The notes below the pieces were generated by a model. That model was given only the letters and a program-made list of their open reading frames with translations, did not search any database and was not told where the DNA came from. Position numbers and translations under genes: made by a program. This document shows positions 32,912 to 60,125 of a stretch of 64,000 nt of DNA, in pieces (the stretch's first letter is position 1; each line of letters begins with the position of its first letter). The DNA comes from Bacteroidia bacterium (lineage in GTDB: Bacteria > Bacteroidota > Bacteroidia > NS11-12g > UBA9320). The stretch lies in the NCBI GenBank assembly GCA_965216465.1, contig CBDCFW010000006.1, positions 928,001 to 992,000 of the forward strand, given 5' to 3'.

Positions 32912-33056
32912 AATATAATCTCCTTTCTATTTCATTGATAGTAAGTCAATTAACGAGCCGAAAACAAAGCTGTTAAGTTAAAATCGTTGATAATCAACGA
33001 TTTGCACAATTGGCTAGCTGTAAAAACCTGCTTAAAAGTGTATACGAAAATCTACA

Positions 33057-33072
33057 ATTACTCTACAGTAAC
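33057..33072 (-). other. Left att junction: displaced original glmS 3' end (GTT ACT GTA GAG TAA = V-T-V-E-stop)
   Basis: Shares the GTAAC core (33068-72) with 47136-40 and 45221-25. Confidence 0.85.
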
Positions 33073-33430
33073 GGATCACTCTCCAAAGATACCAACCTCC
33101 GAAGACCTATCGAACGGTAAGGGTTACTACCTCACGATGGTATTACAAGTATCCTCTCCCAACCTCTGGACTTCACCGTACAGTGACTACCAGTCAAAGT
33201 TGTTTGAGATCATTAAGACCAAACATGAGGACGAGGGATTGAACTTCGTTCAGATAAGTGATTGGTTGAACGAGAACCACTATAAAACTCCTCGGGGTAA
33301 GGTGTTCAAAGAGAACCATGTCTGGAGTATATACACCAAGAAGATGAGGAGTATCCAACGGTTCTCAAGGGAGAACAATACGGAGGTTCTATCGACTGGT
33401 GTTGATGTAGTCAACTACGTTCCTGATTAA
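33068..33430 (+). CDS. Detached C-terminal segment of the integrase (recombinase-domain-like), in frame across attP in the circular form
   Basis: GLNFVQISDWLNENHYKTPRGKVF resembles the recombinase DNA-binding domain; possible internal ATG at 33137. Confidence 0.6.
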   Translation, partial: VTDHSPKIPTSEDLSNGKGYYLTMVLQVSSPNLWTSPYSDYQSKLFEIIKTKHEDEGLNFVQISDWLNENHYKTPRGKVFKENHVWSIYTKKMRSIQRFSRENNTEVLSTGVDVVNYVPD

Positions 33431-33554
33431 CCCAACTGATAGGTCTTAGTCTGTTTTAAAAAACTGACGACATATATAGGGGGTTGGGGTTTGTGTTTCC
33501 TTTTACTGTTGTGATTAGTGGTATATATTGAGTAAACTATGGTTATATGTACCT

Positions 33555-34185
33555 CTATATTAGTTCTTTATGTAAGGATTTATATGTCTTCTTTACCTTA
33601 CTTATAGTAGTTTGAGATACTCCTAGTATCCTACTGATATCTTTGTAACTATACCTCTTATCTAGGTATTTAAGGATATCCTTTGACTTCTTACGTTCTA
33701 AGTATTGTTCTGGAGTATATGATGTTCCAACCCTTCGTCCTATGTATACCTCCGGATTGGTCATTTTTTTTTAATCTGATCCCCTCCAATTGTCTTTGAC
33801 GTATGGACTCCCTTTCAAAACTGTACATCACCGACAGGATGGACAATAATAGTTCACTGAACTTGTCTGGATTTCCTTCACTATCAAAGTTCCTGATGTT
33901 GGGATTACGACAGACCACCGTCACGTTGTTTTCAGTGAACAGTTTCCAGTTTGATAGTACATCGATGGTATTCCTCCCAAGACGATCAATTGAGTGAACC
34001 TCAAGGTGGGTTAGTTTACCCTCATCCATGAGTTTCTTTATCTCCTTCCCTTTCCCTCTTTCAAAGAGTGGAACGGAACCAGATATTACATCACAGAACA
34101 CGTAATCGAACCCTTTAAGGTTCTGTAACTGTCTTTTGTGGGTCTGACCTTCATCGGTACTGATACGGGAATAAAACACCTTCAT
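33555..34185 (-). pseudogene. Small serine resolvase/invertase, frameshifted copy (A9 tract)
   Basis: Identical to 44109..44738 except one extra A at ~33764-33772. Confidence 0.75.
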
Positions 34186-34194
34186 ATTCACTTC

Positions 34195-34460
34195 ATTTTA
34201 TGGGGTAACGCTAATGTACCCTATTAATGGGGTATACGCACTAGTATTGGGGGTGTTTTTAGTACTCGTACGGGTACACCGTAAACTTGGAGTCGAATGG
34301 GTTACGCCAACCAAATATTGACCGGATGATCCTGGACTAGAGACTCCAGAATCCGTGATTTTACTGGGTGGTTATGTTCCGCCAACCAAATTGTCCCCCA
34401 GGGATCTCGTCCCGGGAGGGGTGGGAGGTGTATCCCCTATTATATAGGTGGGAAAGTAGG
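34195..34460. promoter_or_regulatory. Candidate res/ori region (palindromes and direct repeats)
   Basis: GGGTA-n9-TACCC (34203-21); GTACTCGTACGGGTAC (34262-77); CGCCAACCAAAT twice (34305, 34380). Confidence 0.45.
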
Positions 34461-34515
34461 ATATTAGAGAGTAGACCCTACCTTGAAAAAAATATTTCCC
34501 AATTTTTTCTGGAAA

Positions 34516-34989
34516 TTAGGGTCGGTTGTCAAGATAAAACTGATTGTATGTGTGTAGGAGACCTATTAGAGGGGAGGAGAAGTCAATCTGGTGGGATTTG
34601 TCGAATCCTAGTTCATTTCGGAGGAACTCTTCAAGGATGACTTTATCTTTTTGTTGTAGGTGGAAAACTGAACCTCCGTAATCAATTACATACCTGTCAG
34701 GAATTAAACTATTTTTAAATAATTTTAGTCCGTTATTCGAAGAGGTAACCCTCCTAAATTGTTCAATATTATATCGAAAATCCTCCGTATCCCCTTCTAT
34801 TTCTACGTTTTCATTAAAATTGATCGGATTCTCATCATTTTGAACCGTACGACAATTTTTACCCAAAAAACTTGTAACGGTGAGTCTTATAAAATCGGTC
34901 ATATTCAACCCTGTTTTTTGGAGGTAATTTTGGATTTGGACAAAGGTGTCTTCGTCCACCCTTATTCTAATTTGTTTCGTAAACTTCAT
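34516..34989 (-). CDS. Ribbon-helix-helix (CopG/MobC-like) protein
   Basis: MKFTKQIRIRVDEDT..QKTGLNMTDFIR; divergent from the polymerase-like gene. Confidence 0.55.
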   Translation of the reverse strand: MKFTKQIRIRVDEDTFVQIQNYLQKTGLNMTDFIRLTVTSFLGKNCRTVQNDENPINFNENVEIEGDTEDFRYNIEQFRRVTSSNNGLKLFKNSLIPDRYVIDYGGSVFHLQQKDKVILEEFLRNELGFDKSHQIDFSSPLIGLLHTYNQFYLDNRP

Positions 34990-35057
34990 ATGATATAAGT
35001 ATCTACTTGTATCACAAAAGACAATATCCCACCTATTTATATTAAAATTGAACAGTG

Positions 35058-36665
35058 ATGTTCGGACTAATTCCCTCACATATCGACACAGAAAGGTTGG
35101 TCCAAATTGAAGGATTGAGTAATACCCAAAAGAACAGGTTAAAAGAGGGTATGGACTACTTCCTATCACGAATTACGAAGGGGAACCACTCACTTCATAA
35201 TAACAAGGGTTACGAGATAATAAATGACAAGACCCTCTCAGGAATCATAGGAAAAGAAGAACGATTTTCACGATCCTCTCGTATAAAAAAGATATTATTA
35301 GATGAAGGTATCATTGAAACTAAGAATCACCGTTCAGGTCACTATTCCACTGGTTACAGGTTAACCGAAAAACATAATACAGGTATCCTGAAAAGGGTTG
35401 AGTACAGTAAACGAATAGAGAACAAAATCACCAAACTATTAAAAGAAGGTAGAAGAGAAGAGTTTGAAGAATTTGAAGTGGAGGACCGAAACGTAAACCA
35501 TCAGTATTTATATGATCAATTTGAAAAACATACCATAACTACAAGGACTGAGGTTGGTGAATTCATAAGGGAATTGGGAGTTGAGTTATTACCGAAATTT
35601 CAAAGGAAAAAGAAATTAAAAACAGAGAACTTGAAGTCTCTTTTTAATCATCTCGGTTATTTACTCTCAATGGTTGGATCAATAAATAACGGAGAATTTA
35701 ATCCGAGTACTTCACTATCTAATAATAGACTCAATTCATTATTAACCCGTTTCCCGAAAACACTCAGACCATTTTTACTGATCAATAATGATTCAATCGG
35801 GGAAGTTGATCTGGGAACTTCACAACCATTCATATTATCAACCATATTAGGGGAGGATTTTTTAACGGACAATCAACTGGGTTCTTACAACCTATCAACC
35901 ATATATCCGAAACTTAAAATTCAGATAGACAATGTAGGTGGTATGTCTCCATCCAATAAACCCGGAAATAATAATAAGGTACTATGTGTTTTTCTGGACG
36001 ATGAGAACTACGAGTCACTTTTATCCTTTTCAAATTTTGATTTTCAGGAAGACTTTTATGGACACATCGTATCAGAAGGTAGAATTCGAAATCCTGTCAA
36101 GTTTGGTAAAATTACTAGAGGAGATGTAAAGGGTAAAATAATGATACTCCTTTTTCACAATAATGAGTACCATAGGGAAGATGACCTTATAATACAATTG
36201 GTCAAATCTGTTTACAGTGGGTTGATTGAGTTTATTGAGAGGTTTATCCAAATTTTTGGAGGTAGTGAATTCTCCATACTACTTCAAAGAGTTGAGTCAT
36301 TTCTCGTTCTAGATTCTGTGAGTAGACAGATATTCAGAACTAACAACGACATTCCCATATTTACTATTCACGACTCTGTGATGACTACACGAAAATTTAT
36401 AGAACCCGTCAAGACAATTTTTGAAGATACCATTCAAGAAATAACTCAAAAAAATCCCAACGTCAAGATGACCGATTATACAGAAATTCCGCGAGTAACT
36501 AGTGAATTGGTAGAAGAAATAGAGTCCATAACAACAATTTCTTCTGAGAATATATACGAGAAGAAACGACGATGGATATTCTCCTCAAACATTAAAAAAG
36601 GGATTGACTTATTATTTCCAAAAGAGGATCGAACCGAATGGTATACTCTACTTGGGATTGAATAA
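35058..36665 (+). CDS. Family-A DNA polymerase / T7-type RNA polymerase-fold protein
   Basis: Motif-A-like EVDLGTSQP, DFYG, motif-B-like RGDVKGKIMILLF, LQRVES, motif-C-like TIHDS. Confidence 0.6.
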   Translation: MFGLIPSHIDTERLVQIEGLSNTQKNRLKEGMDYFLSRITKGNHSLHNNKGYEIINDKTLSGIIGKEERFSRSSRIKKILLDEGIIETKNHRSGHYSTGYRLTEKHNTGILKRVEYSKRIENKITKLLKEGRREEFEEFEVEDRNVNHQYLYDQFEKHTITTRTEVGEFIRELGVELLPKFQRKKKLKTENLKSLFNHLGYLLSMVGSINNGEFNPSTSLSNNRLNSLLTRFPKTLRPFLLINNDSIGEVDLGTSQPFILSTILGEDFLTDNQLGSYNLSTIYPKLKIQIDNVGGMSPSNKPGNNNKVLCVFLDDENYESLLSFSNFDFQEDFYGHIVSEGRIRNPVKFGKITRGDVKGKIMILLFHNNEYHREDDLIIQLVKSVYSGLIEFIERFIQIFGGSEFSILLQRVESFLVLDSVSRQIFRTNNDIPIFTIHDSVMTTRKFIEPVKTIFEDTIQEITQKNPNVKMTDYTEIPRVTSELVEEIESITTISSENIYEKKRRWIFSSNIKKGIDLLFPKEDRTEWYTLLGIE

Positions 36666-36711
36666 GATTAACCCGCGTATTCGTAAGACTTTTTCATTAA
36701 CCTGAGAGGTT

Positions 36712-39669
36712 TCATTTATTTCCAATCTGTTTAACTACTTCCTTATACATAAAATCAACCAACATAGGGAACACCGTTTTTTTCATGACATTTCGGTAGA
36801 AATCCATTCTATCTCCATGATAATCCACCACTGTATCTTTGAATAGATTGTTGAAGTATTCCTTCTTTACATCCTCAGTGTTATTCCCATTGATGACCTT
36901 CATCAACTCATCGTTGGTATTCATTCGTTCTTGAATCTGTTCTAAGGTTACTCTGTCTTCTTCTCCTAAATTCTCACCAAACACCTGGTTGATCTTATCA
37001 ATGATATCCGATAGGAGAACTTTTTCGTCTTCACCTCTACCACCACCTGATTCACCTGAGATACCATAAACTTCACCTTGTTCTTCAACCAACGTAAGGT
37101 TTGTTTCTCCCATCATTTGAATACGGAGTGAATCTAAATCAACGGAATCTACAACCGATACTCTCTCAGACTCTCTCTTCGGTAGTTTCTTATTTAAGAA
37201 CCTCAGAAATACATATGATTTCTCCCATTTAACTTCTCCAAAAGATGAAATCTGAGAGATGTAAGAATACATTCTAATGAAAGATTGAATCTTGGATTTG
37301 AAATCATCCTGTTCATCCTCATTCAACCGTTCATTGTAGGTGTCTACTACAACATCAATGATGGGATGTAATCGTTCATCGGATTCTGAATTGGAGTAGA
37401 ACTCCTTACAGAATTCATCAATTTGATATTGGGTATAGAGACCGAATTGTTCGATTTCAAACAACATCTGGTACAACTTGTCGGGATCAGTTTCCTCGGT
37501 TAATATGGTTGAGGTATAATAAGGTTGAAACGATTCAATGATATCATCAGTTTCGTTTACAAAATCAAGAATAAAGGTATCCGTCTTTCCGGTCTTTGTT
37601 CGGTTCAACCTTGACAGGGTTTGAACACACTGGACGCCACTCAACTTCTTATCGATGTACATTGATTGTAGAAGTGGTTCATCAAACCCTGTTTGGAATT
37701 TATTGGACACAATGAGAATACGAAATCTCGGGTCTTTCAATCCATTAGGTATGGATGTGTTCACCAACCCATTTTCGGTATTTAATGAGGTTTCGGTGTT
37801 CTCCCTTCCATTGTGGGATATTGTTCCACTAAACCCAACTAAACAACTATAGGGTAGATTTCTATCCTTCATTTGTTTTACCATCTCTTCGTGGAAGAGT
37901 ACACAGTGTTTACGAGAACGAACTACCACCATCCCTCTACCTCTTCCGTTGATTTTTTTAGAGGTATTCCTAATGAAATGATCTAAGATGATGGATACCT
38001 TTTGACGAATGGTTTCGGAATGAGAGTCAACGTAGTTCACCAACTCTCTCTTCACCTTACTCTCAGGTACTTCTACATCTTCTTCAGAACTCTGAAGAAC
38101 CTTAAAGTATCGTTTGTAGGTGGTGTAATTCTGAAGAACATCTAAGGTAAACCCTTCGTGAATGGATTGTTTCATCGTGTAGTAATGGAAGGGTACGAAA
38201 TGACCGTCCTCATTCTTTCTACCAAAGAGTTCTAAGGTTTTGTTCTTCGGTGTCCCAGTGAACCCAAAGAACGAAATATGGTTTTGTTTACCACGAGATT
38301 CTATTTCTTTACGAATCAAATCTTCGTAATCTACTTCTTCCTCGTCTTCGTTTACAGAGAGTGATTTTTTTAAGTGTTTAGATGTTTCTCCCGTTTGTGA
38401 GGAGTGAACCTCATCAATCACTACTCCGAATGTATGTCCCTTCAGTTCTGAGATAACCTCAGAAACAAATGGGAACTTCTGAATGGTCGTAATGATGATA
38501 TCCTTTCCTTTCTCTAAGTACTCTCTCAATTGTTTAGAACCCAACTCAACTGGGTTCACAACCCCATCAGTTTGTTCTAATTTGGATACGGTGTTTTGAA
38601 GTTGTTTATCCAACACTTTTCTATCCGTAACCACCAAAATGGTGTCAAACATTCGTTTGGTATCCCCATCTTTTTGGTACAGAGAAGTGAGTGTATGTGA
38701 CAACCAACCTATCTCAAAACTTTTACCAGAACCAGTGGTATGTTGAATGAGGTAATTGTGACCAACTCCTTCTTCCTTAACCGTACTTCTGAGTTTACGG
38801 ATTACATCCAATTGGTGGTATCGAGGGAAGATCTGAACATCAAACTTTTTGGTAACTACCTTACCCTTCTTCGGATCCCATTCTCTATCTGATTCTTCAG
38901 AAATCAATACAAAGTTCTCGATGATATCCAATAAGGAATCAGGAGTTAAAATATCATTCCATAGGTACTCTGTACGGTAATCTCCTTCTACAATTGGGTT
39001 GGTAATTCCCTTGTTGTACGGAAGAAACTTTGTACCTAGTCCTCTGAGTTGAGTACTCATACTCACCTTATCGTTATCTACACAGAAGTGAACCAAACAC
39101 CGTTTGAACTTCAGTAGTGGTTCTTTCGGGTCTCTGTCCTTTTTGTATTGATTTTGTGAATGAAATATGTTTTGTCCAGTTAGTTGGTTCTTCAATTCCA
39201 TTGTAATTATGGGGATCCCGTTCAGGAAGATCACCATATCTATGGAGTTGTTGTTTCGTTTGGAGTAATGGAGTTGTCGAACAACTACAAAACGATTCTG
39301 AGAATAGAGTTGTTGGTGTTCTTCATTCAAAGAAGATTTGGGTTTGAAGTACACCAAATGGAAGTTACATCCTCTTGTTTCAATACCACCTCTCAGAGTA
39401 TCTATGATACCTCTTTGAGAAATGGTTCTATCAATGGTTTTTAGAATGTGGGAATCGGTAGAAGAATCAAACTGAGTGAAGAGTTTATCGTATTCCTCTT
39501 GTTGGGTGGATTTGATGAACTCTATTACATCTTCCTCAACCAAACAGAGTTCTTTATCATACTTAGATTCAAATTCATTAGAATGAGTAAATGAATGGTG
39601 ATACCCATTCTTGAGAAGTGATTTCTCAATCCATTCTTCAAATCGTAGTTCTGTGAATTTCTTACTCAT
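36712..39669 (-). CDS. hsdR: Type I restriction endonuclease subunit R
   Basis: D..ELK nuclease motif; HTTGSGKS; IDEVHSSQ; FTGTP; TGFD; QTLSRLNR. Confidence 0.92.
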   Translation of the reverse strand: MSKKFTELRFEEWIEKSLLKNGYHHSFTHSNEFESKYDKELCLVEEDVIEFIKSTQQEEYDKLFTQFDSSTDSHILKTIDRTISQRGIIDTLRGGIETRGCNFHLVYFKPKSSLNEEHQQLYSQNRFVVVRQLHYSKRNNNSIDMVIFLNGIPIITMELKNQLTGQNIFHSQNQYKKDRDPKEPLLKFKRCLVHFCVDNDKVSMSTQLRGLGTKFLPYNKGITNPIVEGDYRTEYLWNDILTPDSLLDIIENFVLISEESDREWDPKKGKVVTKKFDVQIFPRYHQLDVIRKLRSTVKEEGVGHNYLIQHTTGSGKSFEIGWLSHTLTSLYQKDGDTKRMFDTILVVTDRKVLDKQLQNTVSKLEQTDGVVNPVELGSKQLREYLEKGKDIIITTIQKFPFVSEVISELKGHTFGVVIDEVHSSQTGETSKHLKKSLSVNEDEEEVDYEDLIRKEIESRGKQNHISFFGFTGTPKNKTLELFGRKNEDGHFVPFHYYTMKQSIHEGFTLDVLQNYTTYKRYFKVLQSSEEDVEVPESKVKRELVNYVDSHSETIRQKVSIILDHFIRNTSKKINGRGRGMVVVRSRKHCVLFHEEMVKQMKDRNLPYSCLVGFSGTISHNGRENTETSLNTENGLVNTSIPNGLKDPRFRILIVSNKFQTGFDEPLLQSMYIDKKLSGVQCVQTLSRLNRTKTGKTDTFILDFVNETDDIIESFQPYYTSTILTEETDPDKLYQMLFEIEQFGLYTQYQIDEFCKEFYSNSESDERLHPIIDVVVDTYNERLNEDEQDDFKSKIQSFIRMYSYISQISSFGEVKWEKSYVFLRFLNKKLPKRESERVSVVDSVDLDSLRIQMMGETNLTLVEEQGEVYGISGESGGGRGEDEKVLLSDIIDKINQVFGENLGEEDRVTLEQIQERMNTNDELMKVINGNNTEDVKKEYFNNLFKDTVVDYHGDRMDFYRNVMKKTVFPMLVDFMYKEVVKQIGNK

Positions 39670-40927
39670 CCGTAGTTACTTTTAGTTTACCTGTTACCAC
39701 CTCTGAGATAAGAGATTGACGATACTCTTTAAGGAGTTCCATCCTCTTTTCTTCAATGGATATGGTGTTATCTATTAATTGAGTTTGATCATCCAAATAA
39801 TCAACAATTTGTTGTTGTTCATTTAAACTCGGAAATGGGAGATACATACTTAAAAACTCAATTGACGGTAACCTCCATCTTCCAAGAGTAGAAACTCCTC
39901 GACCTAGTCCATAGAAGATTTTCCGGGTATAACATAATTGAAATATGTACAGATAATACTCGTTACAAACTCTGTCATTCGACTTTGTAAAAACTCGATA
40001 ATCAGGACTTGTAACCCCTAGTTGTTTTGACAAATCAACATATCCTGTAATTAAATCCATATGATTCATCACAAAATCATTTTCATAGACAAACTGATAT
40101 TTTGAATAGTCCATTGAGTGTTGTCCTTCGTTGTTCTCCAAATCCTTCACTTTAAGACCTCTTTGAGTTACGGAAAGAACATCATACCCTAATTCACCAC
40201 AAATTCGTTTGTTGATAGAAAAGAGTTGTTTGAGTTTTACAAAATCCCAATGATTGGGGATCCTCCCTATCCACTCCACACCACTATCCTTCATGTCTAC
40301 ATTAGGATTCAATCCTTTTGTAACTACTTCGTTGATCAGAGAGGTTTTTTTCTTTTTAAGTAGTTCAATCTTTCGTTGGGTTTTATCAATCAGTGAATCA
40401 ATGATTGAGGTTTTGGTGTCTAAAAAGGATACGATTTGTTGTTGTTCGGAGAGGGGTGGTAGAGGTAATTTAATGTTTCCGAAAACATCTTTTGTCAAGT
40501 GAGTCATTGTTGAACCGTGAGATTCATTTGAAAGTTCATCAATTACTCCTTGAATGACCCAATAATAGAATTTCCGAATCAATTTTTCATTAAGTTCAAC
40601 TTTGAATATGTGTTGATTTAGAACTCCAACATCTCTTTTCCATTCAAACAAACCAAGTGTGGTAGACCAACTAAAAAGATAATCACCTTTCTTAATGATA
40701 TATTTTGGATCTATTTCCCCATTGTAAAAATTTTCAGAACCTTTACCCTTTGTTAAGTTTTGTATTCGAATGATTAGTCTTCCTGAATCTCCCCAATCAG
40801 TTGGTTTGAATGGATATCCATTTATGTAATCACCAACATATTTCATTTTGGTACGATTCCAATGAGAGGGGATCTCACCAATCCAGTCAACTCCAGAATC
40901 TTTATATGACTCATACCTCTTCATCAT
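39662..40927 (-). CDS. hsdS: Type I specificity subunit S
   Basis: Twin KDSGV.WIG.IP.HW and P.L.EQQQIV.FLD conserved regions flanking two TRDs. Confidence 0.92.
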   Translation of the reverse strand: MMKRYESYKDSGVDWIGEIPSHWNRTKMKYVGDYINGYPFKPTDWGDSGRLIIRIQNLTKGKGSENFYNGEIDPKYIIKKGDYLFSWSTTLGLFEWKRDVGVLNQHIFKVELNEKLIRKFYYWVIQGVIDELSNESHGSTMTHLTKDVFGNIKLPLPPLSEQQQIVSFLDTKTSIIDSLIDKTQRKIELLKKKKTSLINEVVTKGLNPNVDMKDSGVEWIGRIPNHWDFVKLKQLFSINKRICGELGYDVLSVTQRGLKVKDLENNEGQHSMDYSKYQFVYENDFVMNHMDLITGYVDLSKQLGVTSPDYRVFTKSNDRVCNEYYLYIFQLCYTRKIFYGLGRGVSTLGRWRLPSIEFLSMYLPFPSLNEQQQIVDYLDDQTQLIDNTISIEEKRMELLKEYRQSLISEVVTGKLKVTTDE

Positions 40928-42633
40928 TCAACAATCTGATTTAACAGGTTTTGAGATTCTTCTTCTAACTTCAACAAGTCATTGGTGATTTCCTGTGAAG
41001 AACGAAGTGGTTTGTACTTGTAGAAATATTTGGTGAAATTGATCTCGTACCCCACTTTACTCTTGTCAAAATCAATCCAAGATTCAGGTAAATGTGGTTC
41101 AACCTCTCTACTGAAATACTCTTCGATATCTTGATCCAATGGAACCCTTTCGTAATCTCTGAGTTTAGAATCAGGTTTAGGTGATCCATCTTTTTTACAT
41201 TCAATTTTCCCATTCTCTTTGAGAGGTTGTTCTATGGTAATCTTAGTATATCCAAAGAACTCATTGGGGTAAATCTTAGAGATTTTAGATTCTTCAAACC
41301 CATTGTATGTGTTTAAGATCTGTTGAGTTTGTTCTTCATCAATGTACTTACGTTTACTACCTAAACTCTTCTTCATTATTTTATGAAGAGAAGATCCATC
41401 AATCAGTTGAACCTTACCATTTCGATTGGTTTTCTTCTTATTGGTTACTATCCAGATATATGTAGAAATACCCGTATTAAAGAATAATGAATCGGGTAGA
41501 GATACAATACACTCTAACCAATCATTCTCAATGATCCATTTTCGGATTTCTGATTCACCACTTCCAGCATCTCCAGTAAAGAGGGGAGAACTGTTGAACA
41601 CTATTCCAATACGAGAACCTTCAGGTTTCATTTTAGAAATTAGGTGTTGAAGAAACAACAAGGATCCGTCAGATGTACGCGGAGTACCCACCGAAAATCT
41701 CCCCATTGAGTTTTTAGATTCTTCTTCAACATAACTCTTCTCTGATTTCCAACTGACTCCAAAGGGTGGATTGGTAATCATATAATCAAACTTTCTTCCC
41801 TCGTGTTGATCGTTTGATAGAGATGAACCCAATTTGATACGTTCAGGGTCTTCCCCTGTAATCAAGAAATCAGATTTACAAATAGAGAAGGTCTGTGGGT
41901 TTAGTTCTTGACCGTAGAGTTGGAACATTACATCAGATGAGATATTATCATTAACCCAATCCTTACCAATGGTTAACATTCCTCCTGTACCACAACAAGG
42001 GTCGTAAATTGAACGAATGATACCTTCACCCTTCAGGTTTTCATCATCACCACTAAACACCATTGAAACGAGAAGATTCACCACATCTCTTGGAGTGTAG
42101 TGTTCTCCACTTGTTTCGTTACTCATCTCGGAGAACTTACGAAGAAGTTCCTCAAAGATGGACCCCATTGTATGGTTATCTACTTTGTTGGGGTGTAAAT
42201 CAACCTCAGTAAACTTATCTATGAGGGAGTAGAGTTTCTTATTTTTAATGAGTTTCTCAACGGGTTTATCCAATTGGAAATTTTCCAATATCTGATGAAC
42301 GTTATCAGAATACCCATTCAGGTAGTTCGGGAAATTGATCCTCAATCCATTCGGGTCAGATTTCAAACGAGTTAAATCGTAGGGAGAATAGTTGAAGAAG
42401 TTTAATCCTGTTTTCTTTTTGATGATTGGAGTTGGGTCGTCAATACCACTTTGAAGAAGTTCATTGTATTGTTTTACCACTTCATCTTTATGAGGTTCAA
42501 TCAAACAATCCAGTCGTCGAAGTACAACGAATGGAAGGATCACATCTCCGTATTCGTGAGGTTTAAATAATCCTCTTAACTCATCGTCACAAACCCTCCA
42601 TATGAAGGATGATATTTCTTGGTAATTACTCAT
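40924..42633 (-). CDS. hsdM: Type I methyltransferase subunit M
   Basis: GEHYTPRDVV, YDPCCGTGGML, NPPF. Confidence 0.93.
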   Translation of the reverse strand: MSNYQEISSFIWRVCDDELRGLFKPHEYGDVILPFVVLRRLDCLIEPHKDEVVKQYNELLQSGIDDPTPIIKKKTGLNFFNYSPYDLTRLKSDPNGLRINFPNYLNGYSDNVHQILENFQLDKPVEKLIKNKKLYSLIDKFTEVDLHPNKVDNHTMGSIFEELLRKFSEMSNETSGEHYTPRDVVNLLVSMVFSGDDENLKGEGIIRSIYDPCCGTGGMLTIGKDWVNDNISSDVMFQLYGQELNPQTFSICKSDFLITGEDPERIKLGSSLSNDQHEGRKFDYMITNPPFGVSWKSEKSYVEEESKNSMGRFSVGTPRTSDGSLLFLQHLISKMKPEGSRIGIVFNSSPLFTGDAGSGESEIRKWIIENDWLECIVSLPDSLFFNTGISTYIWIVTNKKKTNRNGKVQLIDGSSLHKIMKKSLGSKRKYIDEEQTQQILNTYNGFEESKISKIYPNEFFGYTKITIEQPLKENGKIECKKDGSPKPDSKLRDYERVPLDQDIEEYFSREVEPHLPESWIDFDKSKVGYEINFTKYFYKYKPLRSSQEITNDLLKLEEESQNLLNQIVE

Positions 42634-42639
42634 TTCAGG

Positions 42640-42849
42640 TCAATTTTCTTTCGGGTCGTCATAAATCAATTCCGAGGGTTTAACCCCTAGTATTTGAGAA
42701 ATACGATTTAATGTTTCAAGTGAAGGTTGTGATTTATTATTACACCACAGGTTTACACTTACTGGTGAAACACCTATTTTTATGGATAACCATTTCTGAC
42801 TTCGGTTTTGATTTTTCAAAACTTCTCTCAGATTATTAAGTTTTCTCAT
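42640..42849 (-). CDS. XRE-family HTH regulator (controller-like) heading hsdMSR
   Basis: NNLREVL..SQKWL..GVS..V..W..N..QPSLETL. Confidence 0.8.
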   Translation of the reverse strand: MRKLNNLREVLKNQNRSQKWLSIKIGVSPVSVNLWCNNKSQPSLETLNRISQILGVKPSELIYDDPKEN

Positions 42850-42963
42850 TACGCCCAGAATCTTGGTCAAACTTAAACTAATTCTTAAAGATTTGGTAAT
42901 AAATCCTATTTTTGATTGAGAGAATTGGGACATTATTTGACCCAATTTCAAAGGGTATACATA

Positions 42964-43722
42964 ATGGAAGACGAGTTCTTACTTGATGAACTTAAAAACT
43001 ACATCGACTATTTCGAGGGGAGACCTTATGTCCATCATTTTCTTGTAGGGAATTCTTACGAAGTCAACATCAATGGTAAGAGTGTAAACAATTGTTTGAC
43101 AAACAATCAATATCTAGGGAAGAAAGAACTTTATGAGGAGTATTACTTGAATAGAGAATACGAAGAAGTTCTTTCGATGTTGGACAAACATAAGAGGATG
43201 GATTGGTTCATCCAACATCACGAAGAGATCTATGAAAAATCAAATAATGAAGACCAATATTATCAACTCCTAAGAGAGAATCTGGTTTACGTGGACAACC
43301 ATGAACCATACAGAAAGGAATACCCAAATTTGATCCATATAGGAAGTAATCCCCAATTGATGATGTTAGAGGATGAACGACTAAAATTGGATAAACTCCC
43401 TAATGAATTTGTTGTTTACAGAGGTGTTTCCTCAAACGAAAAAATAACGAAGAGAAACGTTCAAGGTTTACTCGGGAATTCATGGAGTCTCGACAGGGAG
43501 ATATCAATTTGGTTCTCCAAAAACCATTCGTCAAGACATCTAAATTCAAAGTATTTGGTTCTACTGACCTACCAAGTTTCAAAAACTGAGGTACTCGGGT
43601 ATTTTACGGACAGGAATGAAGAAGAAATGTTTTTAGACTACACTAGGATTGATATTGACAAAGTATCATTTGAAGAAATCCCGGAGAATTACCAGTTGAA
43701 AGTTTCCTTTGATAAAGGTTAA
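42964..43722 (+). CDS. Putative R-S-E-clade ADP-ribosyltransferase-like protein
   Basis: VVYRG ... NSWSLD....WF ... RNEEEM in the C-terminal half. Confidence 0.45.
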   Translation: MEDEFLLDELKNYIDYFEGRPYVHHFLVGNSYEVNINGKSVNNCLTNNQYLGKKELYEEYYLNREYEEVLSMLDKHKRMDWFIQHHEEIYEKSNNEDQYYQLLRENLVYVDNHEPYRKEYPNLIHIGSNPQLMMLEDERLKLDKLPNEFVVYRGVSSNEKITKRNVQGLLGNSWSLDREISIWFSKNHSSRHLNSKYLVLLTYQVSKTEVLGYFTDRNEEEMFLDYTRIDIDKVSFEEIPENYQLKVSFDKG

Positions 43723-44108
43723 ATCTAATAGGTCTCCTACACACATACAATCAGTTTTATCTTGACAACCGACCCTAATTTCCAGAAAAAATTGGGAAAT
43801 ATTTTTTTCAAGGTAGGGTCTACTCTCTAATATCCTACTTTCCCACCTATATAATAGGGGATACACCTCCCACCCCTCCCGGGACGAGATCCCTGGGGGA
43901 CAATTTGGTTGGCGGAACATAACCACCCAGTAAAATCACGGATTCTGGAGTCTCTAGTCCAGGATCATCCGGTCAATATTTGGTTGGCGTAACCCATTCG
44001 ACTCCAAGTTTACGGTGTACCCGTACGAGTACTAAAAACACCCCCAATACTAGTGCGTATACCCCATTAATAGGGTACATTAGCGTTACCCCATAAAATG
44101 AAGTGAAT

Positions 44109-44738
44109 ATGAAGGTGTTTTATTCCCGTATCAGTACCGATGAAGGTCAGACCCACAAAAGACAGTTACAGAACCTTAAAGGGTTCGATTACGTGTTCTG
44201 TGATGTAATATCTGGTTCCGTTCCACTCTTTGAAAGAGGGAAAGGGAAGGAGATAAAGAAACTCATGGATGAGGGTAAACTAACCCACCTTGAGGTTCAC
44301 TCAATTGATCGTCTTGGGAGGAATACCATCGATGTACTATCAAACTGGAAACTGTTCACTGAAAACAACGTGACGGTGGTCTGTCGTAATCCCAACATCA
44401 GGAACTTTGATAGTGAAGGAAATCCAGACAAGTTCAGTGAACTATTATTGTCCATCCTGTCGGTGATGTACAGTTTTGAAAGGGAGTCCATACGTCAAAG
44501 ACAATTGGAGGGGATCAGATTAAAAAAAATGACCAATCCGGAGGTATACATAGGACGAAGGGTTGGAACATCATATACTCCAGAACAATACTTAGAACGT
44601 AAGAAGTCAAAGGATATCCTTAAATACCTAGATAAGAGGTATAGTTACAAAGATATCAGTAGGATACTAGGAGTATCTCAAACTACTATAAGTAAGGTAA
44701 AGAAGACATATAAATCCTTACATAAAGAACTAATATAG
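44109..44738 (+). CDS. Small serine resolvase/invertase with C-terminal HTH (intact copy)
   Basis: YSRIST catalytic Ser; SIDRLGRN; ERESIRQRQLEG; HTH SYKDISRILGVSQTTI. Confidence 0.88.
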   Translation: MKVFYSRISTDEGQTHKRQLQNLKGFDYVFCDVISGSVPLFERGKGKEIKKLMDEGKLTHLEVHSIDRLGRNTIDVLSNWKLFTENNVTVVCRNPNIRNFDSEGNPDKFSELLLSILSVMYSFERESIRQRQLEGIRLKKMTNPEVYIGRRVGTSYTPEQYLERKKSKDILKYLDKRYSYKDISRILGVSQTTISKVKKTYKSLHKELI

Positions 44739-44862
44739 AGGTACATATAACCATAGTTTACTCAATATATACCACTAATCACAACAGTAAAAGGAAACAC
44801 AAACCCCAACCCCCTATATATGTCGTCAGTTTTTTAAAACAGACTAAGACCTATCAGTTGGG

Positions 44863-45448
44863 TTAATCAGGAACGTAGTTGACTACATCAACACCAGTCG
44901 ATAGAACCTCCGTATTGTTCTCCCTTGAGAACCGTTGGATACTCCTCATCTTCTTGGTGTATATACTCCAGACATGGTTCTCTTTGAACACCTTACCCCG
45001 AGGAGTTTTATAGTGGTTCTCGTTCAACCAATCACTTATCTGAACGAAGTTCAATCCCTCGTCCTCATGTTTGGTCTTAATGATCTCAAACAACTTTGAC
45101 TGGTAGTCACTGTACGGTGAAGTCCAGAGGTTGGGAGAGGATACTTGTAATACCATCGTGAGGTAGTAACCCTTACCGTTCGATAGGTCTTCGGAGGTTG
45201 GTATCTTTGGAGAGTGATCCGTTACAGTGGAGTAGAGCGAACGGGTCTGAAGTTGGTCCCCCAGTGTTTTCAATGGTTTGAGGACTGTTGAGTCTGGTGC
45301 GGAATTTGAATCTCCCCAAGTGGTTTTCGTCAAAAGTGGGATTTTAAGGTTGATTTTGAGGGTGTGAAGAAGGGTTTGAGAGTCGTGGTATAGAATGACC
45401 TTATCAAGAATGGAATCTAATACTGACCTTTTAAATTCAGGTGTAAGA
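44863..45448 (-). pseudogene. 5'-less copy of the integrase 3' end, reading through attP into the extra recombinase-like domain
   Basis: LTPEFK...LYSTVTD|HSPK...VPD in one frame. Confidence 0.7.
45200..45245. other. Intact internal attP (core GTTAC 45221-25), inverted
   Basis: Both element-side arms are joined: ..GATCC-GTTAC-AGTGGAGTAG.. Confidence 0.8.
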
Positions 45449-45506
45449 TTTTTCCAAAACGGTTCCGATATACACAGAATAATCTCTACTTTTTGGGATC
45501 ATTCAA

Positions 45507-47165
45507 ATGGAAACGTTACATATATTAATTCGTGTAAGTACACAAAGTCAAGAAGAAGATGGAACCAGTCTTCGAACCCAAAAACAACTTGGAATCGACC
45601 TATCTCGTAGGTTGAAAATGAAGTATCAAGTTCATAATGAAGGGGGAACTTCCTCCAGTAAAGATACCCTCGATAACAGACCTGTGATGTTGAATCTTTT
45701 GAGATTAATGGATGAAGGGATAGTCAAACACCTATTCGTTTATAATACTGATAGACTCTCAAGGGGGTATACCTGGTATATTATACGGAAGAAAATGGTT
45801 GACAATAACGTGATACTCTATTGTTCTACAGGAAGGTTCAATACCAGTGGGTCGATGGAGACATTGATTTTGGGAATATTATCAGAAATTTCTCAATACG
45901 ATAACAAGGTCAGAACCGAAAGATCACGTCTTGGGAAGTTGGAGAAGGTTAAACTCAATTATTATAGAGGAGGACCCCCAACATTTGGATACAAAATACA
46001 GAAAGGACAAAGGGGTTCAACACTAGAAATTGATGAATTCGAAGGTCAGATCGTTAGATCAGTGTTTAAAATGTACCATAAGGGTCACTCCGTCAAGGAG
46101 ATTAAACAGGTACTTGAGAAGGACGGAGTACGTACCCGGAGGGGTAATAAACATTGGTCATTAGGGTCACTTCAATTGATGTTGAGGAACGATACTTACA
46201 TTGGAATAGAGGAGTACCATGACAAGAAAAGTGGTGTTACGATACGAAGTGAAGTCCCTCCAATCATTCCAGTTAGGTTGTTTGAAGAGGTACAACAACG
46301 AAGAGTCAGAATTCTTACCCGTAAAGGTCAATTCAATCGGACAACACATGAGTATCTGTTTAGAGATTTTATGTATTGTCAGTGTGGATCTCCCATTGGA
46401 GGACGAATTAAACCGTCGAAATCAATCAGACAATTTTTCTGTACCCTTTCTGAAAGGAAATTTAACAAGTCAAAACCTACTTCTAAAACCTGTGAGATGA
46501 AACGATGTGTGAACATCGACAAAACAGAAGAGTTACTTTGGGATACCATTTATTCTCAACTGATTAAAACATCCGAAATGAGATTGATACTGAAAAAGAC
46601 AATCAAGGAAAACCCATCATTCTCATCAAGGGTCAGAAAACAGAAAGGGAAAATAAAAGACGAACTCAACCAAAAGGAGAAAGAATTAAAAAAGATTAGT
46701 GATGGAATCATCGACATTGAAAGAAGGAGAATTCTGAATGAATTTCAATCTGAAGACCTGTATAAAGGAATCAAAAAAGAGTTGGATAAGGAATACCGAA
46801 ATTGTCACATTCAAATTGAAAACCTAAAAAACTCTCTAAGATATTATGGGGAACAAGAGAACTGGTTCAAAACATTAGAACACTTATCAACCACCCTGAA
46901 ATCTACATCAATTCTTACACCTGAATTTAAAAGGTCAGTATTAGATTCCATTCTTGATAAGGTCATTCTATACCACGACTCTCAAACCCTTCTTCACACC
47001 CTCAAAATCAACCTTAAAATCCCACTTTTGACGAAAACCACTTGGGGAGATTCAAATTCCGCACCAGACTCAACAGTCCTCAAACCATTGAAAACACTGG
47101 GGGACCAACTTCAGACCCGTTCGCTCTACTCCACTGTAACTGATTTTGCAAGATTTCTAGGTTGA
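45507..47165 (+). CDS. Large serine recombinase (integrase); last 6-7 codons are glmS antisense sequence
   Basis: RVST, DRLSR, recombinase domain, Zn ribbon YCQCG..FC..C, coiled coil. Confidence 0.92.
   Translation: METLHILIRVSTQSQEEDGTSLRTQKQLGIDLSRRLKMKYQVHNEGGTSSSKDTLDNRPVMLNLLRLMDEGIVKHLFVYNTDRLSRGYTWYIIRKKMVDNNVILYCSTGRFNTSGSMETLILGILSEISQYDNKVRTERSRLGKLEKVKLNYYRGGPPTFGYKIQKGQRGSTLEIDEFEGQIVRSVFKMYHKGHSVKEIKQVLEKDGVRTRRGNKHWSLGSLQLMLRNDTYIGIEEYHDKKSGVTIRSEVPPIIPVRLFEEVQQRRVRILTRKGQFNRTTHEYLFRDFMYCQCGSPIGGRIKPSKSIRQFFCTLSERKFNKSKPTSKTCEMKRCVNIDKTEELLWDTIYSQLIKTSEMRLILKKTIKENPSFSSRVRKQKGKIKDELNQKEKELKKISDGIIDIERRRILNEFQSEDLYKGIKKELDKEYRNCHIQIENLKNSLRYYGEQENWFKTLEHLSTTLKSTSILTPEFKRSVLDSILDKVILYHDSQTLLHTLKINLKIPLLTKTTWGDSNSAPDSTVLKPLKTLGDQLQTRSLYSTVTDFARFLG
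46913..47135 (+). repeat. 223-bp arm inverted relative to 45226-45448
   Basis: Reverse-complement match by eye. Confidence 0.9.
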
Positions 47166-48970
47166 TCTACATTACAACCACGCATAACTGCAATGTAGTA
47201 CGAAAGAAGCTGAAGAGGAATAGTAGCCAAGATCGGGGTTAGGCAATCTTCTGTATCTGGAATTTCAATAACGTGATCTGCAACTTCTCGAACCTTAACG
47301 TCTCCTTCAGTAACAATTGCTATTATTTTACCTTTTCTTGCTTTAACCTCTTGAATATTGCTTAATACTTTCTCGTAGTAATTACGCTTAGTTGCAATAA
47401 CAACTACGGGCATTTCCTCATCAATTAATGCAATTGGGCCATGTTTCATTTCAGCAGCAGGATATCCTTCCGCGTGGATGTATGATATTTCCTTAAGTTT
47501 TAAGGCACCCTCAAGAGCAACAGGGAAATTATATCCTCTACCTAAGTAAAGGCAATTTGGAGCATCCATGTAGATGGAAGCAATCTCTTTACATTTATCG
47601 TGGCAGGACTCCAGTAATTCTTGAACTTTGGTTGGAATTGTATCAAGCTCAGCGAACATCTGACGTAGCCTATCTCGCGTTATTTTACCTCTAATGTCTG
47701 CAATACCCAATGCAAGTAGTGTAAGCACGGTTACTTGAGCGGTAAATGCTTTGGTTGAAGCTACACCAATTTCAGGTCCAGCATGAGTATAAGCTCCTGC
47801 ATGAGTAATTCTAGGAATGCTTGACCCCACAACATTGCAGATTCCGTATATGGTTGCTCCTTTTTCCTTAGCCATTTCAAGTGCTGCCAAGGTATCAGCA
47901 GTTTCACCACTTTGAGAGATTGCAATTACCAAGTCGTCTTCAGTAATAATTGGATTTCTATATCTGAATTCGGAAGCGTATTCTACTTCAACCGGAATTC
48001 TGCCAAACTCTTCAATGAGATATTCGCCAACAAGCCCAGCATGCCATGATGTGCCACAAGCTACAATGATGATACGGTCGAGGTTTCGAATTTTTGGAGC
48101 AAATTCTTCCAAACTTCTCATAGCAAATGTGAGACTGTTAGGATCAAATCTACCTCTCATAGAATCATATATAGACTTTGGTTGTTCAAAGATTTCTTTA
48201 AGCATGAAATGTTCGTACCCGCCTTTTTCCAGAGCATCTAAGCTGATTTCAAGTTCTTGTATAAAAGGAGATTTTGCAACATTGTCAATAGTCTTTAGTG
48301 TCATCTCACCATCGTGAATAGCCACAATTTCGTTATCGTCTAAGTAGGTTACCTTTTTAGTGTATTCAACTATAGGAGTTGCATCGCTAGCTAAAAAGAA
48401 TTCTCCTTCACGGTCGCTGATTCCAACTACCAAAGGACTTCCTTTTCGAGCAGCAATAAGCGTGTTAGGATCATTCTTGCTTAAGATAACAATGGCATAA
48501 GCACCAACTACTTCATTGAGGGCTAAACGAACTGCTTCTAACAAGTCAACACCTTCTTGTTCTTTTATTTCTTCAATTAAATGAGTAAGAACTTCAGTGT
48601 CAGTGTCACTTACAAACTCATGACCTCTATCAAGCAGTACTTTTTTAAGCGTATCGTAGTTCTCAATTATACCATTGTGAATAAGTGCAATGTCGCCACT
48701 CTGAGATAAATGAGGATGAGCATTAATGGTGTTAGGCTCACCATGAGTAGCCCAACGCGTGTGACCTATTCCTCGAGTTCCTTCAACATTTTTACCGGTA
48801 GTATTTTCTACAAGTTCAGAAACTTTTCCTTTGTTTTTATATACTCGAAGTGCTCCATTTAAAATGGCAATACCAGCACTGTCGTATCCACGATATTCTA
48901 ATCTTTGAAGACCCTTTACCAAAAAGTCATAGGCTTGGTCTGGTCCGTAGTAAGCAACGATTCCGCACAT
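47126..48970 (-). CDS. glmS: Glucosamine-fructose-6-phosphate aminotransferase
   Basis: MCGI, LEYRGYDSAG, GHTRWATHG, PRNLAKSVTVE. Confidence 0.98.
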   Translation of the reverse strand: MCGIVAYYGPDQAYDFLVKGLQRLEYRGYDSAGIAILNGALRVYKNKGKVSELVENTTGKNVEGTRGIGHTRWATHGEPNTINAHPHLSQSGDIALIHNGIIENYDTLKKVLLDRGHEFVSDTDTEVLTHLIEEIKEQEGVDLLEAVRLALNEVVGAYAIVILSKNDPNTLIAARKGSPLVVGISDREGEFFLASDATPIVEYTKKVTYLDDNEIVAIHDGEMTLKTIDNVAKSPFIQELEISLDALEKGGYEHFMLKEIFEQPKSIYDSMRGRFDPNSLTFAMRSLEEFAPKIRNLDRIIIVACGTSWHAGLVGEYLIEEFGRIPVEVEYASEFRYRNPIITEDDLVIAISQSGETADTLAALEMAKEKGATIYGICNVVGSSIPRITHAGAYTHAGPEIGVASTKAFTAQVTVLTLLALGIADIRGKITRDRLRQMFAELDTIPTKVQELLESCHDKCKEIASIYMDAPNCLYLGRGYNFPVALEGALKLKEISYIHAEGYPAAEMKHGPIALIDEEMPVVVIATKRNYYEKVLSNIQEVKARKGKIIAIVTEGDVKVREVADHVIEIPDTEDCLTPILATIPLQLLSYYIAVMRGCNVDQPRNLAKSVTVE

Positions 48971-49066
48971 AGTTTAATAATTCTAGCAAATTTATTGATA
49001 ATAACGTGACGCTATTTCACATTATGATACAAGTGTAGTAAATAGTAGTTTATTTCGATGAACGGA

Positions 49067-50326: not shown

Positions 50327-50406
50327 AGTATTTTAAAGCTGCAAATGTAATTATCTTGATTACATTGAGCAAAAAACAGTTTGCAGTGTCAATTAGCTCA
50401 GTTCTA

Positions 50407-52583: not shown

Positions 52584-52664
52584 TTCGTTAACATACTTTA
52601 TAACTTCGTTGACAATGTTGAGCTGAATGAATATGGAGCTTTGTTGTAATAAAAATCAATAATC

Positions 52665-53453: not shown

Positions 53454-53469
53454 TTGATCATCTGAATGT

Positions 53470-53494
53470 AAAAAAGGGCTTCGGCCCTTTTTTT
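53470..53494. terminator. Intrinsic terminator
   Basis: AAAAAAGGGC-TTCG-GCCCTTTTTT. Confidence 0.85.
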
Positions 53495-53562
53495 ATACTC
53501 TTTTAATCTACCAACCGTTTGTTAAAATAAGTTTTATTAGCTAACTTTGAGACCATACGTTT

Positions 53563-56546: not shown

Positions 56547-56547
56547 C

Positions 56548-57735: not shown

Positions 57736-57747
57736 AAGAAAGAAAAG

Positions 57748-59870: not shown

Positions 59871-60042
59871 AAATGTATTTTATAATGACTACAAGCGTGT
59901 GACCGCTAACGAAACATACCCAAAATGTCGTTAAATGCCATAAACATTGTTAAATATGTGCCTTTTTAAGCCAATTTTATTGATTTTAATCTCTTTTGTT
60001 GCATTTATGGGTAGAAGGTTATAAAGTCTCTATCTTTGAAGT

Positions 60043-60123: not shown

Positions 60124-60125
60124 GC

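Follow-up and report, generated by a model that had tools for sequence, protein, structure and literature searches.

An integrative island nearly free of GpC and alanine at the end of glmS in a Bacteroidia bacterium, and a cross-phylum pool of similar islands

We analyzed a 64,000-nucleotide stretch of DNA from a Bacteroidia bacterium (assembly GCA_965216465.1, contig CBDCFW010000006.1, positions 928,001 to 992,000 of the forward strand), referred to here as the window and numbered from its first letter. Between 33068 and 47140, the window holds an integrative island, seated at the end of the host gene glmS, that has lost nearly all of its GC dinucleotides (GpC) and, with them, nearly all of the alanine in its proteins. 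An exact count finds 18 GC dinucleotides in the island, where about 492 are predicted from base composition (odds 0.04). The original prediction, made from the letters of the sequence, had also counted 18 by eye; its expectation of about 400 was somewhat low, but the strong depletion that it described holds.

The island at the end of glmS and its genes

From its ends and gene content, the region is an integrative island, probably self-replicating, that a large serine recombinase has inserted at the conserved 3′ end of glmS. The glmS gene, the predicted integration target, lies on the minus strand (47126–48970); it has normal GpC and 8.8% alanine, and its open reading frame (ORF) ends in AKSVTVE. 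At the right junction (attR, 47127–47144), where the junction sequence was read, glmS takes its last four codons and its stop from the end of the element. The left junction (attL, 33059–33076) has its crossover near 33066–33070, at the end of inverted-repeat arms, with host DNA to the left and GpC-free DNA to the right. The junctions near 33070 and 47140 have GTAAC-N-GAT in common, and attB is the end of glmS. The same ends recur inside the island. A repeat search found an inverted, 100% identical copy of the left arm 33059–34570 (1512 bp) at 43724–45234 and an inverted, 99% identical copy of the right end 46910–47144 (235 bp) at 45217–45451. Read backwards, the block 43724–45451 runs from right end through core to left end, which gives an attP-like junction, and contigs from public runs span it (44530–45936 and 45221–45448). 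Neither a circular junction nor an empty site was seen among these contigs. The island is thus bounded as a large-serine-recombinase element would be, by attL and attR with a common core, a reconstructable attB, and an internal attP-like junction. In 10 further places, glmS also adjoins an island.

The predicted integrase is a large serine recombinase of 552 amino acids (aa), encoded on the plus strand at 45507–47165. It has an RVST motif and the Resolvase plus Recombinase domain architecture of the integrase of a large-serine-recombinase element (PF00239, E 2.4e-13; PF07508, E 3.8e-17), and its matches to the NCBIfam Ccr and XisF models are weak and far below the cut-offs. The att core sits within this gene. 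In the integrated state, the recombinase stops after six host-encoded residues; in the joined, attP-like arrangement, its frame extends about 117 aa into a left-end ORF, with a weak second Recombinase-domain match. Integration may switch the recombinase between two C-termini, to judge from these frames. The left-end ORF (cluster c6; 33071–33430, plus strand) itself has a weak match to the Recombinase domain (E 6.5e-4). ORFs 32987–33430 and 44863–45333 have its sequence in common, and it is also present in islands L001, L004, L023, L118, and L127 (numbers beginning with L or G are our own labels).

An additional, small serine recombinase of the resolvase/invertase type (211 aa; Pfam Resolvase and HTH) is intact at 44103–44738 on the plus strand; its match to the NCBIfam Mpi-type invertase is well under the family cut-off. 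The left copy of this gene (33555–34191, minus strand) is split into ORFs of 166 and 69 aa by a 1-nt frameshift near 33765–33771, and the repeat arms, I1 and I2, are displaced by one base, which fits such a frameshift. In the adjoining intergenic DNA (34200–34400), four residual GCs, at 34210, 34238, 34306, and 34381, lie in repeated TACGC and CGCCAACCA-type motifs; this cluster probably represents protein-binding sites (res or origin). A 9.15-kb cargo segment (34571–43723) with the polymerase, hsdRSM, regulator, and orf268 genes is flanked by the 1.5-kb inverted repeats, so that a copy of the small serine recombinase gene lies on either side of it. In run X1, a single contig of low depth connects the left end of the cargo, via a repeat arm, to 45235–45936. 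This is a weak hint, perhaps an assembler path through the repeat, that the cargo may be present in both orientations.

The cargo includes a predicted Type I restriction–modification (R-M) system, with hsdM, hsdS, and hsdR in one operon on the minus strand and with the domains, motifs, and constraint characteristic of such systems. The N6-adenine methyltransferase subunit, HsdM (40924–42633; 569 aa), matches N6_Mtase (E 2e-64) and HsdM_N, and the motifs NPPF and DPCCGTGG are visible in its translation. HsdS (39662–40927; 421 aa) has two target-recognition domains (Methylase_S twice, E 1.9e-30), and the restriction subunit HsdR (36712–39669; 985 aa) has HSDR_N, SWI2_SNF2, ResIII, and T1R_D3 domains with GSGKS and DEVH motifs. 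PADLOC calls MTase_I at E 1e-244 and REase_I at E 3e-49. Next to this operon is orf536 (35055–36665, plus strand), which has no match in Pfam, NCBIfam, PADLOC, or PHROG. Its AlphaFold model (pLDDT 87.2) retrieves only family-A DNA polymerases or mitochondrial RNA polymerase at Foldseek ranks 1–50 in the PDB, the best at E 2e-4 with a low TM of about 0.3. Across 20 homologues, D252, Q257 (SQP 256–258), R355, K359, F367, H439, and D440 (HD 439–440) are invariant; by eye, we take these residues to belong to the family-A motifs A, B, and C. The fold match and the invariant residues make it plausible that orf536 is a family-A-like polymerase, as the original prediction had it.

The remaining genes are smaller. 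A ribbon-helix-helix-like regulator (34516–35169, minus strand) has weak NikA/RelB-like Pfam matches (E 8e-4 and 5e-3) and a match to a PHROG transcriptional repressor (E 4e-5); its true start is probably downstream of 35169. An Xre-type HTH regulator of 103 aa (42640–42951, minus strand) is recognized by Pfam HTH_3 (E 3.8e-11). Adjoining the latter is orf268 (42916–43722, plus strand), a cargo protein that has no Pfam match and matches phrog_4776, a family of unknown function (E 9e-21). A protein-atlas feature search ranks clusters of the ADP-ribosyltransferase (DRAT) family at 0.93, a pattern like R...S-x-S...E-x-E can be seen by eye, and a homologue is found in island L029. As a lead only, orf268 is possibly an ADP-ribosyltransferase, and it may be a toxin or defense effector. 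Rfam gave no RNA family in 32800–47400 at E ≤0.1, and no tRNA lies within the window. PHROGs and PADLOC assigned no function to most of the backbone ORFs. A phage satellite (PICI/P4-like) was considered, and an integrase, HTH regulators, and replication genes are present; PHROGs gave no capsid, packaging, or phage structural match in the backbones, and no close phage relative was found.

Depletion of GpC and loss of alanine

The flanks of the island have ordinary GpC, with 1414 GC dinucleotides on the left (1–33067; odds 1.15) and 749 on the right (47141–64000; odds 1.21), and the G+C content of island and flanks is nearly equal (37.4% and 38.5%). Six of the 18 GCs in the island are second copies within the internal inverted repeats, which leaves 12 unique ones. 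The depletion is particular to this word: the odds of other dinucleotides stay high (CG 0.70, GG 1.39, CC 1.32). No GC occurs from 37637 to 41566, the bounding GCs being at 37636 and 41567. The edges of the depletion coincide with the att junctions, since the last host GC on the left is at 33030 and the first of the element at 34210, and on the right the last element GC is at 47123 and the first host GC at 47148. These counts bear out what had been seen by eye, namely that CG, GG, and CC remain common, that a stretch of about 3.9 kb is GC-free, and that the depletion matches the att boundaries. Across the 3.23-Mb genome, GpC odds in 2-kb windows have a mean of 1.13 (SD 0.16). They fall below 0.5 in 27 of 6442 windows, all 27 on the island. 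The genome-wide sliding-window comparison that the original prediction had called for thus leaves the island as the sole GpC-poor region, with odds nowhere near the host value.

GC has been lost at codon positions 1-2, 2-3, and 3-1 as well as in intergenic DNA. Because all codon phases, intergenic DNA, and every alanine codon are affected, the earlier claim that the pressure acts on nucleic acid and not on protein is upheld. There is a consequence that had been missed: with GC lost at codon positions 1-2, the GCN codons are gone, and the proteins of the island are therefore alanine-free. HsdR, HsdS, orf536, orf268, the small serine recombinase, and both regulators contain no alanine; HsdM contains one and the large serine recombinase two, of which one is in the host-encoded tail. 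Neighboring host proteins have 3.8–8.8%. Among ORFs of at least 200 aa, less than 0.5% alanine is found in 7 of 1914 genome-wide (median 6.3%), and all 7 lie in the element. Despite the missing alanine, the ORFs are long and their catalytic motifs intact. The sole alanine of HsdM, encoded at the GC at 41567, occupies a conserved position (GDAGSG), a column in which all GC-bearing relatives keep alanine. In effect, this element makes its proteins from an alphabet of 19 amino acids; the alanines of relatives are replaced by Ser, Val, Pro, Thr, Gly, or Cys.

GpC-free relatives in other phyla

To place the island among its relatives, we counted alanine in homologues of three of its proteins, taking the best 120 for HsdM, 150 for the recombinase, and 68 for the polymerase among the matches listed. 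The 120 HsdM homologues from a large protein collection with several sources (78–94% identity) comprise 96 with no alanine, 5 with one or two, and 19 with 3–18. For the recombinase, 150 representative homologues (<50% mutual identity), many of them just 28–37% identical to the query, include 48 with less than 0.5% alanine and 27 more with 0.5–2.5%. Less than 0.5% alanine is also found in 19 of the 68 polymerase homologues. Following the integrase and polymerase genes into other genomes, as the original prediction had proposed, thus leads to many GpC-free, alanine-free relatives.

At the DNA level, 80 loci around HsdM relatives in species-representative genomes include wholly GpC-free islands of 4–16.5 kb, usually with normal host flanks on the same contig. 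The islands carry the labels Salibacteraceae, Maribacter, Flavobacteriaceae, Chitinophagaceae, Flavobacterium, Crocinitomicaceae, Draconibacterium, Hydrotalea, Cloacimonadota, and others; at the level of phyla, these are Bacteroidota, Cloacimonadota, Alpha- and Gammaproteobacteria, and others. We delimited the islands by GC density and afterwards cut off 10–60 bp to exclude GCs at the boundaries, and the GC-bearing right part of L020 and the left 3.4 kb of L004 were left out of the clean sets. Under these rules, 14 pooled islands (167,931 bp) hold 50 GCs against 4215 expected, and 17 trimmed islands from several phyla (191,597 bp) hold 44. In 155 mechanically called island ORFs of at least 100 aa, 13 of 54,349 residues are alanine, compared with 3080 of 46,447 in flank ORFs. 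Independent isolates show the property, and so do single-cell genomes and metagenome assemblies produced by many projects. Our element belongs to a large cross-phylum pool of GpC-free, alanine-free islands. The statement of the original prediction that no element this extreme is known holds in so far as full-text searches of the literature, which did not extend to supplements and subscription journals, returned no description of GpC-free or alanine-free mobile elements; it fails in that the element is one of a large set.

The islands differ in their machinery. Their integrases are of the serine or the tyrosine type, the replication gene is a polymerase or a rolling-circle Rep, and the cargo ranges over Type I R-M, PDC-S18, and others, although cargo frequencies are biased because the islands were found with HsdM, recombinase, and polymerase probes. 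For example, G104, of the same class, has an 8.1-kb island with a single GC and without Type I R-M, which has a related recombinase pair and backbone genes in common with L001. A conserved motif, TTTTGCTATA, contains both the lone GC of L001 (1419) and that of the G104 island (L105 18029), and in each island it lies some 35 nt upstream of backbone gene c9. This motif probably acts as a promoter or operator that cannot do without the GC. In islands with a tyrosine integrase, a small rolling-circle initiator protein (REP_ORF2-G2P, E 2e-7; cluster c8) is encoded directly upstream of hsdM, at 9389–9916 in L010 and also in L013, L025, and L029; these islands probably pass through a single-stranded replication stage. 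The polymerase gene also occurs on three metagenome contigs (11.1, 9.4, and 3.5 kb) that lack GpC over their entire length.

Other searches marked out the limits of this pool. Four of 401 genomes of the class, the window's own included, match the recombinase, and the recombinase used as a single query against genome contigs gave no match. Collections of plasmids and phages contain distant relatives only (HsdM <60% in plasmids; recombinase about 24–29% in phages), with just two weak matches for the polymerase. No GpC-free phage or plasmid was present among the collections searched; such elements may exist elsewhere. Viral contigs with HsdM relatives are mostly GpC-normal, and L086–L088 are partly depleted. 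A sister HsdM clade, about 60% identical, is found in some 37 sponge-associated Poribacteria records (L036–L078) with GpC odds of 0.8–1.08; its members have just 21–32 alanines in about 575 residues despite this near-normal GpC.

The relatives also indicate how long the purge has been maintained. Pairs of GpC-free hsdM genes have dS of 0.83–1.8, or saturated, and dN/dS of 0.05–0.07. Synonymous sites have thus turned over about once or more with no GC created, so that selection against GpC has been sustained. The GpC purge is kept up by continuing selection while the proteins stay strongly constrained. At the positions where GC-bearing relatives have alanine, the commonest replacement is Ser (30%), followed by Val, Pro, Lys, Asn, Thr, Gly, Glu, and Cys. 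The HsdM tree has a clade of 48 tips in which each sub-clade contains some of the 20 GpC-free tips, and GC-bearing tips are nested between these. All GpC-free HsdM proteins carry identical replacement residues at ancestral alanine columns (e.g., Pro, Gly, and an unusual Cys), which argues for a single origin followed by repeated regain of GC. Partial GpC (odds 0.1–0.6), with a few alanines, is confined to hsdMSR operons beside glmS that have no recombinase, in L018, L026, L033, and L035; these look like immobilized remnants that are drifting back toward GC. Also beside glmS, in GpC-normal DNA, L083 (G025:C5:2108-5353) has a 119-aa frame that is 67% identical to the N-terminus of the recombinase; it looks like what is left of an element of this kind after decay.

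Candidate readers of GpC and comparison with known systems

The pattern of loss says something about what is being avoided. In a tally in which our element was taken up to 43723, to count the duplicated arm once, divergent intergenic regions (5.1 kb) have 7 GCs against 95 expected, convergent gaps 1 against 52, and tandem gaps 5 against 126. The divergent DNA contains promoters and is purged too, which places the constraint on DNA, or at least not on mRNA alone, as it would be for motif loss of the ACA-less type. Every NGCN context has been lost, palindromic and non-palindromic (AGCA/TGCT) equally. Relative to a Markov expectation, palindromes are the 4-mers that the islands avoid most strongly (GATC 0.26, CTAG 0.32, CATG 0.41, CCGG 0.56, ACGT 0.57; GTAC 0.64), whereas the same words have values of 0.69–1.0 in the flanks. 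Avoidance of short palindromes is a classical mark of DNA exposed to restriction enzymes, and the islands thus bear it as well. However, GC is depleted about 100-fold and the next most avoided word 4-fold, and the odds of CG are merely 0.60 in the islands, though it could be removed at no cost in amino acids. A loss of this size, in all contexts and at the expense of an amino acid, with CG so mildly affected, argues for a reader of GpC over the sum of many enzymes. The unique residual GCs of our element are in CGC/GCG in 11 of 12 cases, compared with 23% genome-wide (p ~1e-6), and this bias is not seen in the other islands. The target of GC or DGCH named in the original prediction is therefore apt for this element, but its context is not a property of the pool. 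The chlorovirus enzyme R.CviJI reads RGCY, and a CviJI-like context gradient was considered and set aside: in pooled, partly depleted islands, RGCY stood at 0.45–0.76 and YGCR at up to 1.55, but at codon phase 3-1 the gradient is absent (0.91/1.04/1.00), so it is confounded by codon usage.

The explanation that we favor, and to which we give about an even chance, is an external barrier that acts on DNA and reads GpC, from which these elements have escaped through the loss of GpC. GpC itself would be the recognition determinant, in this element mainly as GC without a preceding C or following G. The barrier would be met when elements move, enter a new cell, or replicate outside the chromosome. 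Hosts or competing phages could supply it, as a restriction nuclease or modifying enzyme with a very short site, or it could be methyl-dependent restriction of G-5mC marks brought from a previous host; enzymes of the McrBC type read purine-5mC pairs, and the present host would imprint GCGC. An element without GpC would offer no target and could thus establish in very different hosts. We hold slightly short of even the wider proposal that aquatic bacteria or phages have a widespread DNA-targeting activity at the GpC step, and that a cross-phylum guild of small integrative replicons with defense cargo has escaped it, yielding natural, functional 19-amino-acid enzymes.

Several observations weigh against an external GpC barrier. 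We found no candidate GpC methyltransferase or nuclease in this host. Its only C5 methyltransferase (G000:C6:422407-423333; locus L107 1492-2475) is an orphan with a full-length match to M.HhaI (E 8e-103) and no nuclease gene beside it, and no methyltransferase able to protect all GpC sites was found. There is no N4/N6 beta-class methyltransferase (PF01555) above the cut-off, and the host matches to PF02384 are Type I methyltransferases only, one besides that of the element. The R-M system of the CviJI/M.CviPI kind that the original prediction had named as one possible agent, and for whose genes it had suggested a search, was therefore not found in this host. Host DNA is GpC-rich (odds 1.13–1.2), and long-term 5mC at GpC is thus unlikely in this host. 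M.CviPI and its relatives are enzymes of chloroviruses, which infect algae, and we know of no bacterial defense, toxin, or phage nuclease described as reading a two-base DNA word. In a published list of GC-dinucleotide methyltransferases, M.CviPI and relatives (GC, GCY) have viral-style accessions and none is bacterial (PMC9636781). In 2-kb windows, the genome has no further GpC-poor part, and GpC is normal in the 30 kb surrounding each of the host's four genes for tyrosine recombinases; should those loci be mobile, which they need not be, such a barrier would not apply to all foreign DNA in this host. Intergenic DNA makes up 9.9% of the island sequence but has 18 of the 44 residual GCs, a four-fold enrichment that could mean weaker selection outside transcripts; those intergenic GCs sit in repeated binding-site-like motifs (e.g., 34306 and 34381). 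Parsimony on the HsdM tree, taken alone, leaves the direction undecided, since a single origin would need 14 decays and the alternative 13 independent purges, and the taxon labels of metagenome bins are possibly wrong for mobile DNA. As a side observation, M.HhaI recognizes GCGC, and the element contains no GCGC.

Other explanations have to be weighed against the same data. Cumulative stealth, in which many ordinary restriction and methyl-dependent systems (AGCT, GGCC, TGCA, GCGC, CGCG, GCNGC, RGCY, and longer sites) met across a very wide host range jointly drove GC to zero, is unlikely in our estimate. It would account for the spread of the islands over several phyla, for the avoidance of palindromes that lack GC (GATC, CTAG, CATG, and CCGG), and for RGCY being the rarest context relative to flanks in partly GC-bearing islands. 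However, that gradient is confounded by codon usage, as noted, and the fold differences between GC and the next word, the purge of AGCA/TGCT as complete as that of palindromes, and the retention of CG all fit it poorly, as does the fact that alanine is not retained even in harmless contexts. A mutational pressure is rather unlikely. Here, a GpC-specific mutator would act in single-stranded stages such as rolling-circle replication or conjugation, for instance a cytosine deaminase of single-stranded DNA that prefers 5′-GC and serves as a defense or toxin, and only lineages freed from any need for GC would last. The rolling-circle Rep of some islands makes such stages plausible, residual GCs are at seemingly required sites (binding-like motifs and one conserved Ala), and AC/GT odds are 0.99 in islands and 0.81 in flanks. 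Yet the rise of GA/TC and GG/CC exceeds that of GT/AC, AC/GT shows no strand asymmetry in the element (891 vs 866), and islands with a polymerase are as clean as those with a rolling-circle Rep. The replacements of alanine, led by Ser and with Val and Thr together only about 14%, are not the signature of cytosine deamination either.

Selection on RNA by a GC-cutting endoribonuclease, from a toxin–antitoxin or abortive infection system, that stops host translation and spares GC-free transcripts is improbable. Coding DNA is indeed cleaner than intergenic DNA (26 GCs in 172.7 kb vs 18 in 18.9 kb), and since GC is self-complementary, an RNA target would clear the other strand as well. Such a nuclease would nevertheless need identical specificity in hosts of several phyla, and the divergent gaps, which are at least partly untranscribed, and the convergent gaps are purged too. 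We regard it as very improbable that the depletion is self-inflicted, by a GC-specific nuclease, ADP-ribosyltransferase, or promiscuous recombinase of the elements themselves or by a polymerase/primase signal. The elements do carry Type I R-M, PDC-S18, a weak GIY-YIG (G104), and the ADP-ribosyltransferase lead orf268, and the cluster of residual GCs adjoins the small recombinase gene. Against this, G104 has no R-M; L010, L013, and L022 have neither the small serine recombinase nor the polymerase; and the minimal GpC-free unit, L012, consists of hsdMSR and two small ORFs. No gene cluster is common to all of the GpC-free islands compared, and G104 and L010 have none in common. This argues for an outside agent and makes a self-encoded weapon, which the original prediction had also offered, unlikely. 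Finally, an error of sequencing, assembly, or base calling, or a random fluctuation, is next to impossible. There are some oddities of the assembly type, namely the 1-nt, homopolymer-like difference between the repeat arms and the low-depth contigs, but the deficit of GC is beyond chance, it repeats in data of independent kinds, and the reading frames are long and conserved (dN/dS ~0.06).

If an external barrier that reads GpC exists, the islands are a sign of strong selection by an agent that recognizes just two bases of DNA, and they offer a handle on it through the comparison of GC-free with GC-recoded DNA. Complex enzymes, including a three-subunit Type I enzyme, serine and tyrosine recombinases, and a polymerase, appear from their conserved sequences to work essentially without alanine. 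This alanine-free state, long maintained under strong purifying selection, is a natural experiment on reduced amino-acid alphabets. The absence of GpC and alanine is also a compositional signature by which a hidden mobilome and its decayed remnants can be recognized. GpC-free design may help DNA to become established in hard-to-transform bacteria, and both the recombinases that target glmS and the compact polymerases add new parts that might be put to practical use.

Several known systems resemble these islands in part. Phages and plasmids avoid restriction sites, and in the known cases the sites are 4–8 bp long and a few-fold depleted, or a handful of them have been lost. The islands share this trait in their short palindromes (0.26–0.57), which are rarer than in the host, but they lose a 2-bp word about 100-fold in every context and an amino acid along with it. 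Vertebrate RNA viruses poor in CpG (ZAP) and DNA viruses depleted of APOBEC motifs are partially depleted, and their hosts are motif-poor as well. There, as we propose here, the composition of a parasite has been reshaped at the nucleic-acid level against a reader of very short words. In contrast, the hosts of the islands are GpC-rich (odds 1.2), the depletion is near total, and an amino acid has been abolished. In RNA, MazF cuts ACA and MqsR cuts GCU, and ACA-less mRNAs escape MazF in the "single protein production" system. The loss of a short word would confer immunity to a sequence-specific nuclease in both settings; those cases concern RNA and single genes, whereas in the islands whole elements have been purged, including intergenic DNA of the untranscribed type.

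M.CviPI and its homologues show that DNA recognition of GpC size is possible (PMC9636781). They are our model for the postulated agent, although no bacterial counterpart was found in this host. In its architecture, the island resembles SCCmec Ccr and XisF elements, with a Resolvase plus Recombinase integrase, a short att core, and the restored end of a conserved gene, but its similarity to their models is far under the family cut-offs. Tn7 also targets the 3′ region of glmS; the island differs from it in using a recombinase mechanism, not TnsABCD. To our knowledge, no large-serine-recombinase element has been described as GpC-free. The resident hsdMSR remnants recall the amelioration of acquired DNA in that they drift toward host composition, but the trait being eroded is the lack of a dinucleotide and an amino acid rather than G+C content or codon bias. 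As an element, then, this is a serine-recombinase island at a conserved gene end that carries Type I R-M, both of known kinds. The phenomenon itself exceeds motif avoidance as known so far: a two-base word is depleted about 100-fold, an amino acid is lost with it from multi-subunit enzymes, and both losses are shared by a deep cross-phylum pool and decay in copies that appear to have become immobile.

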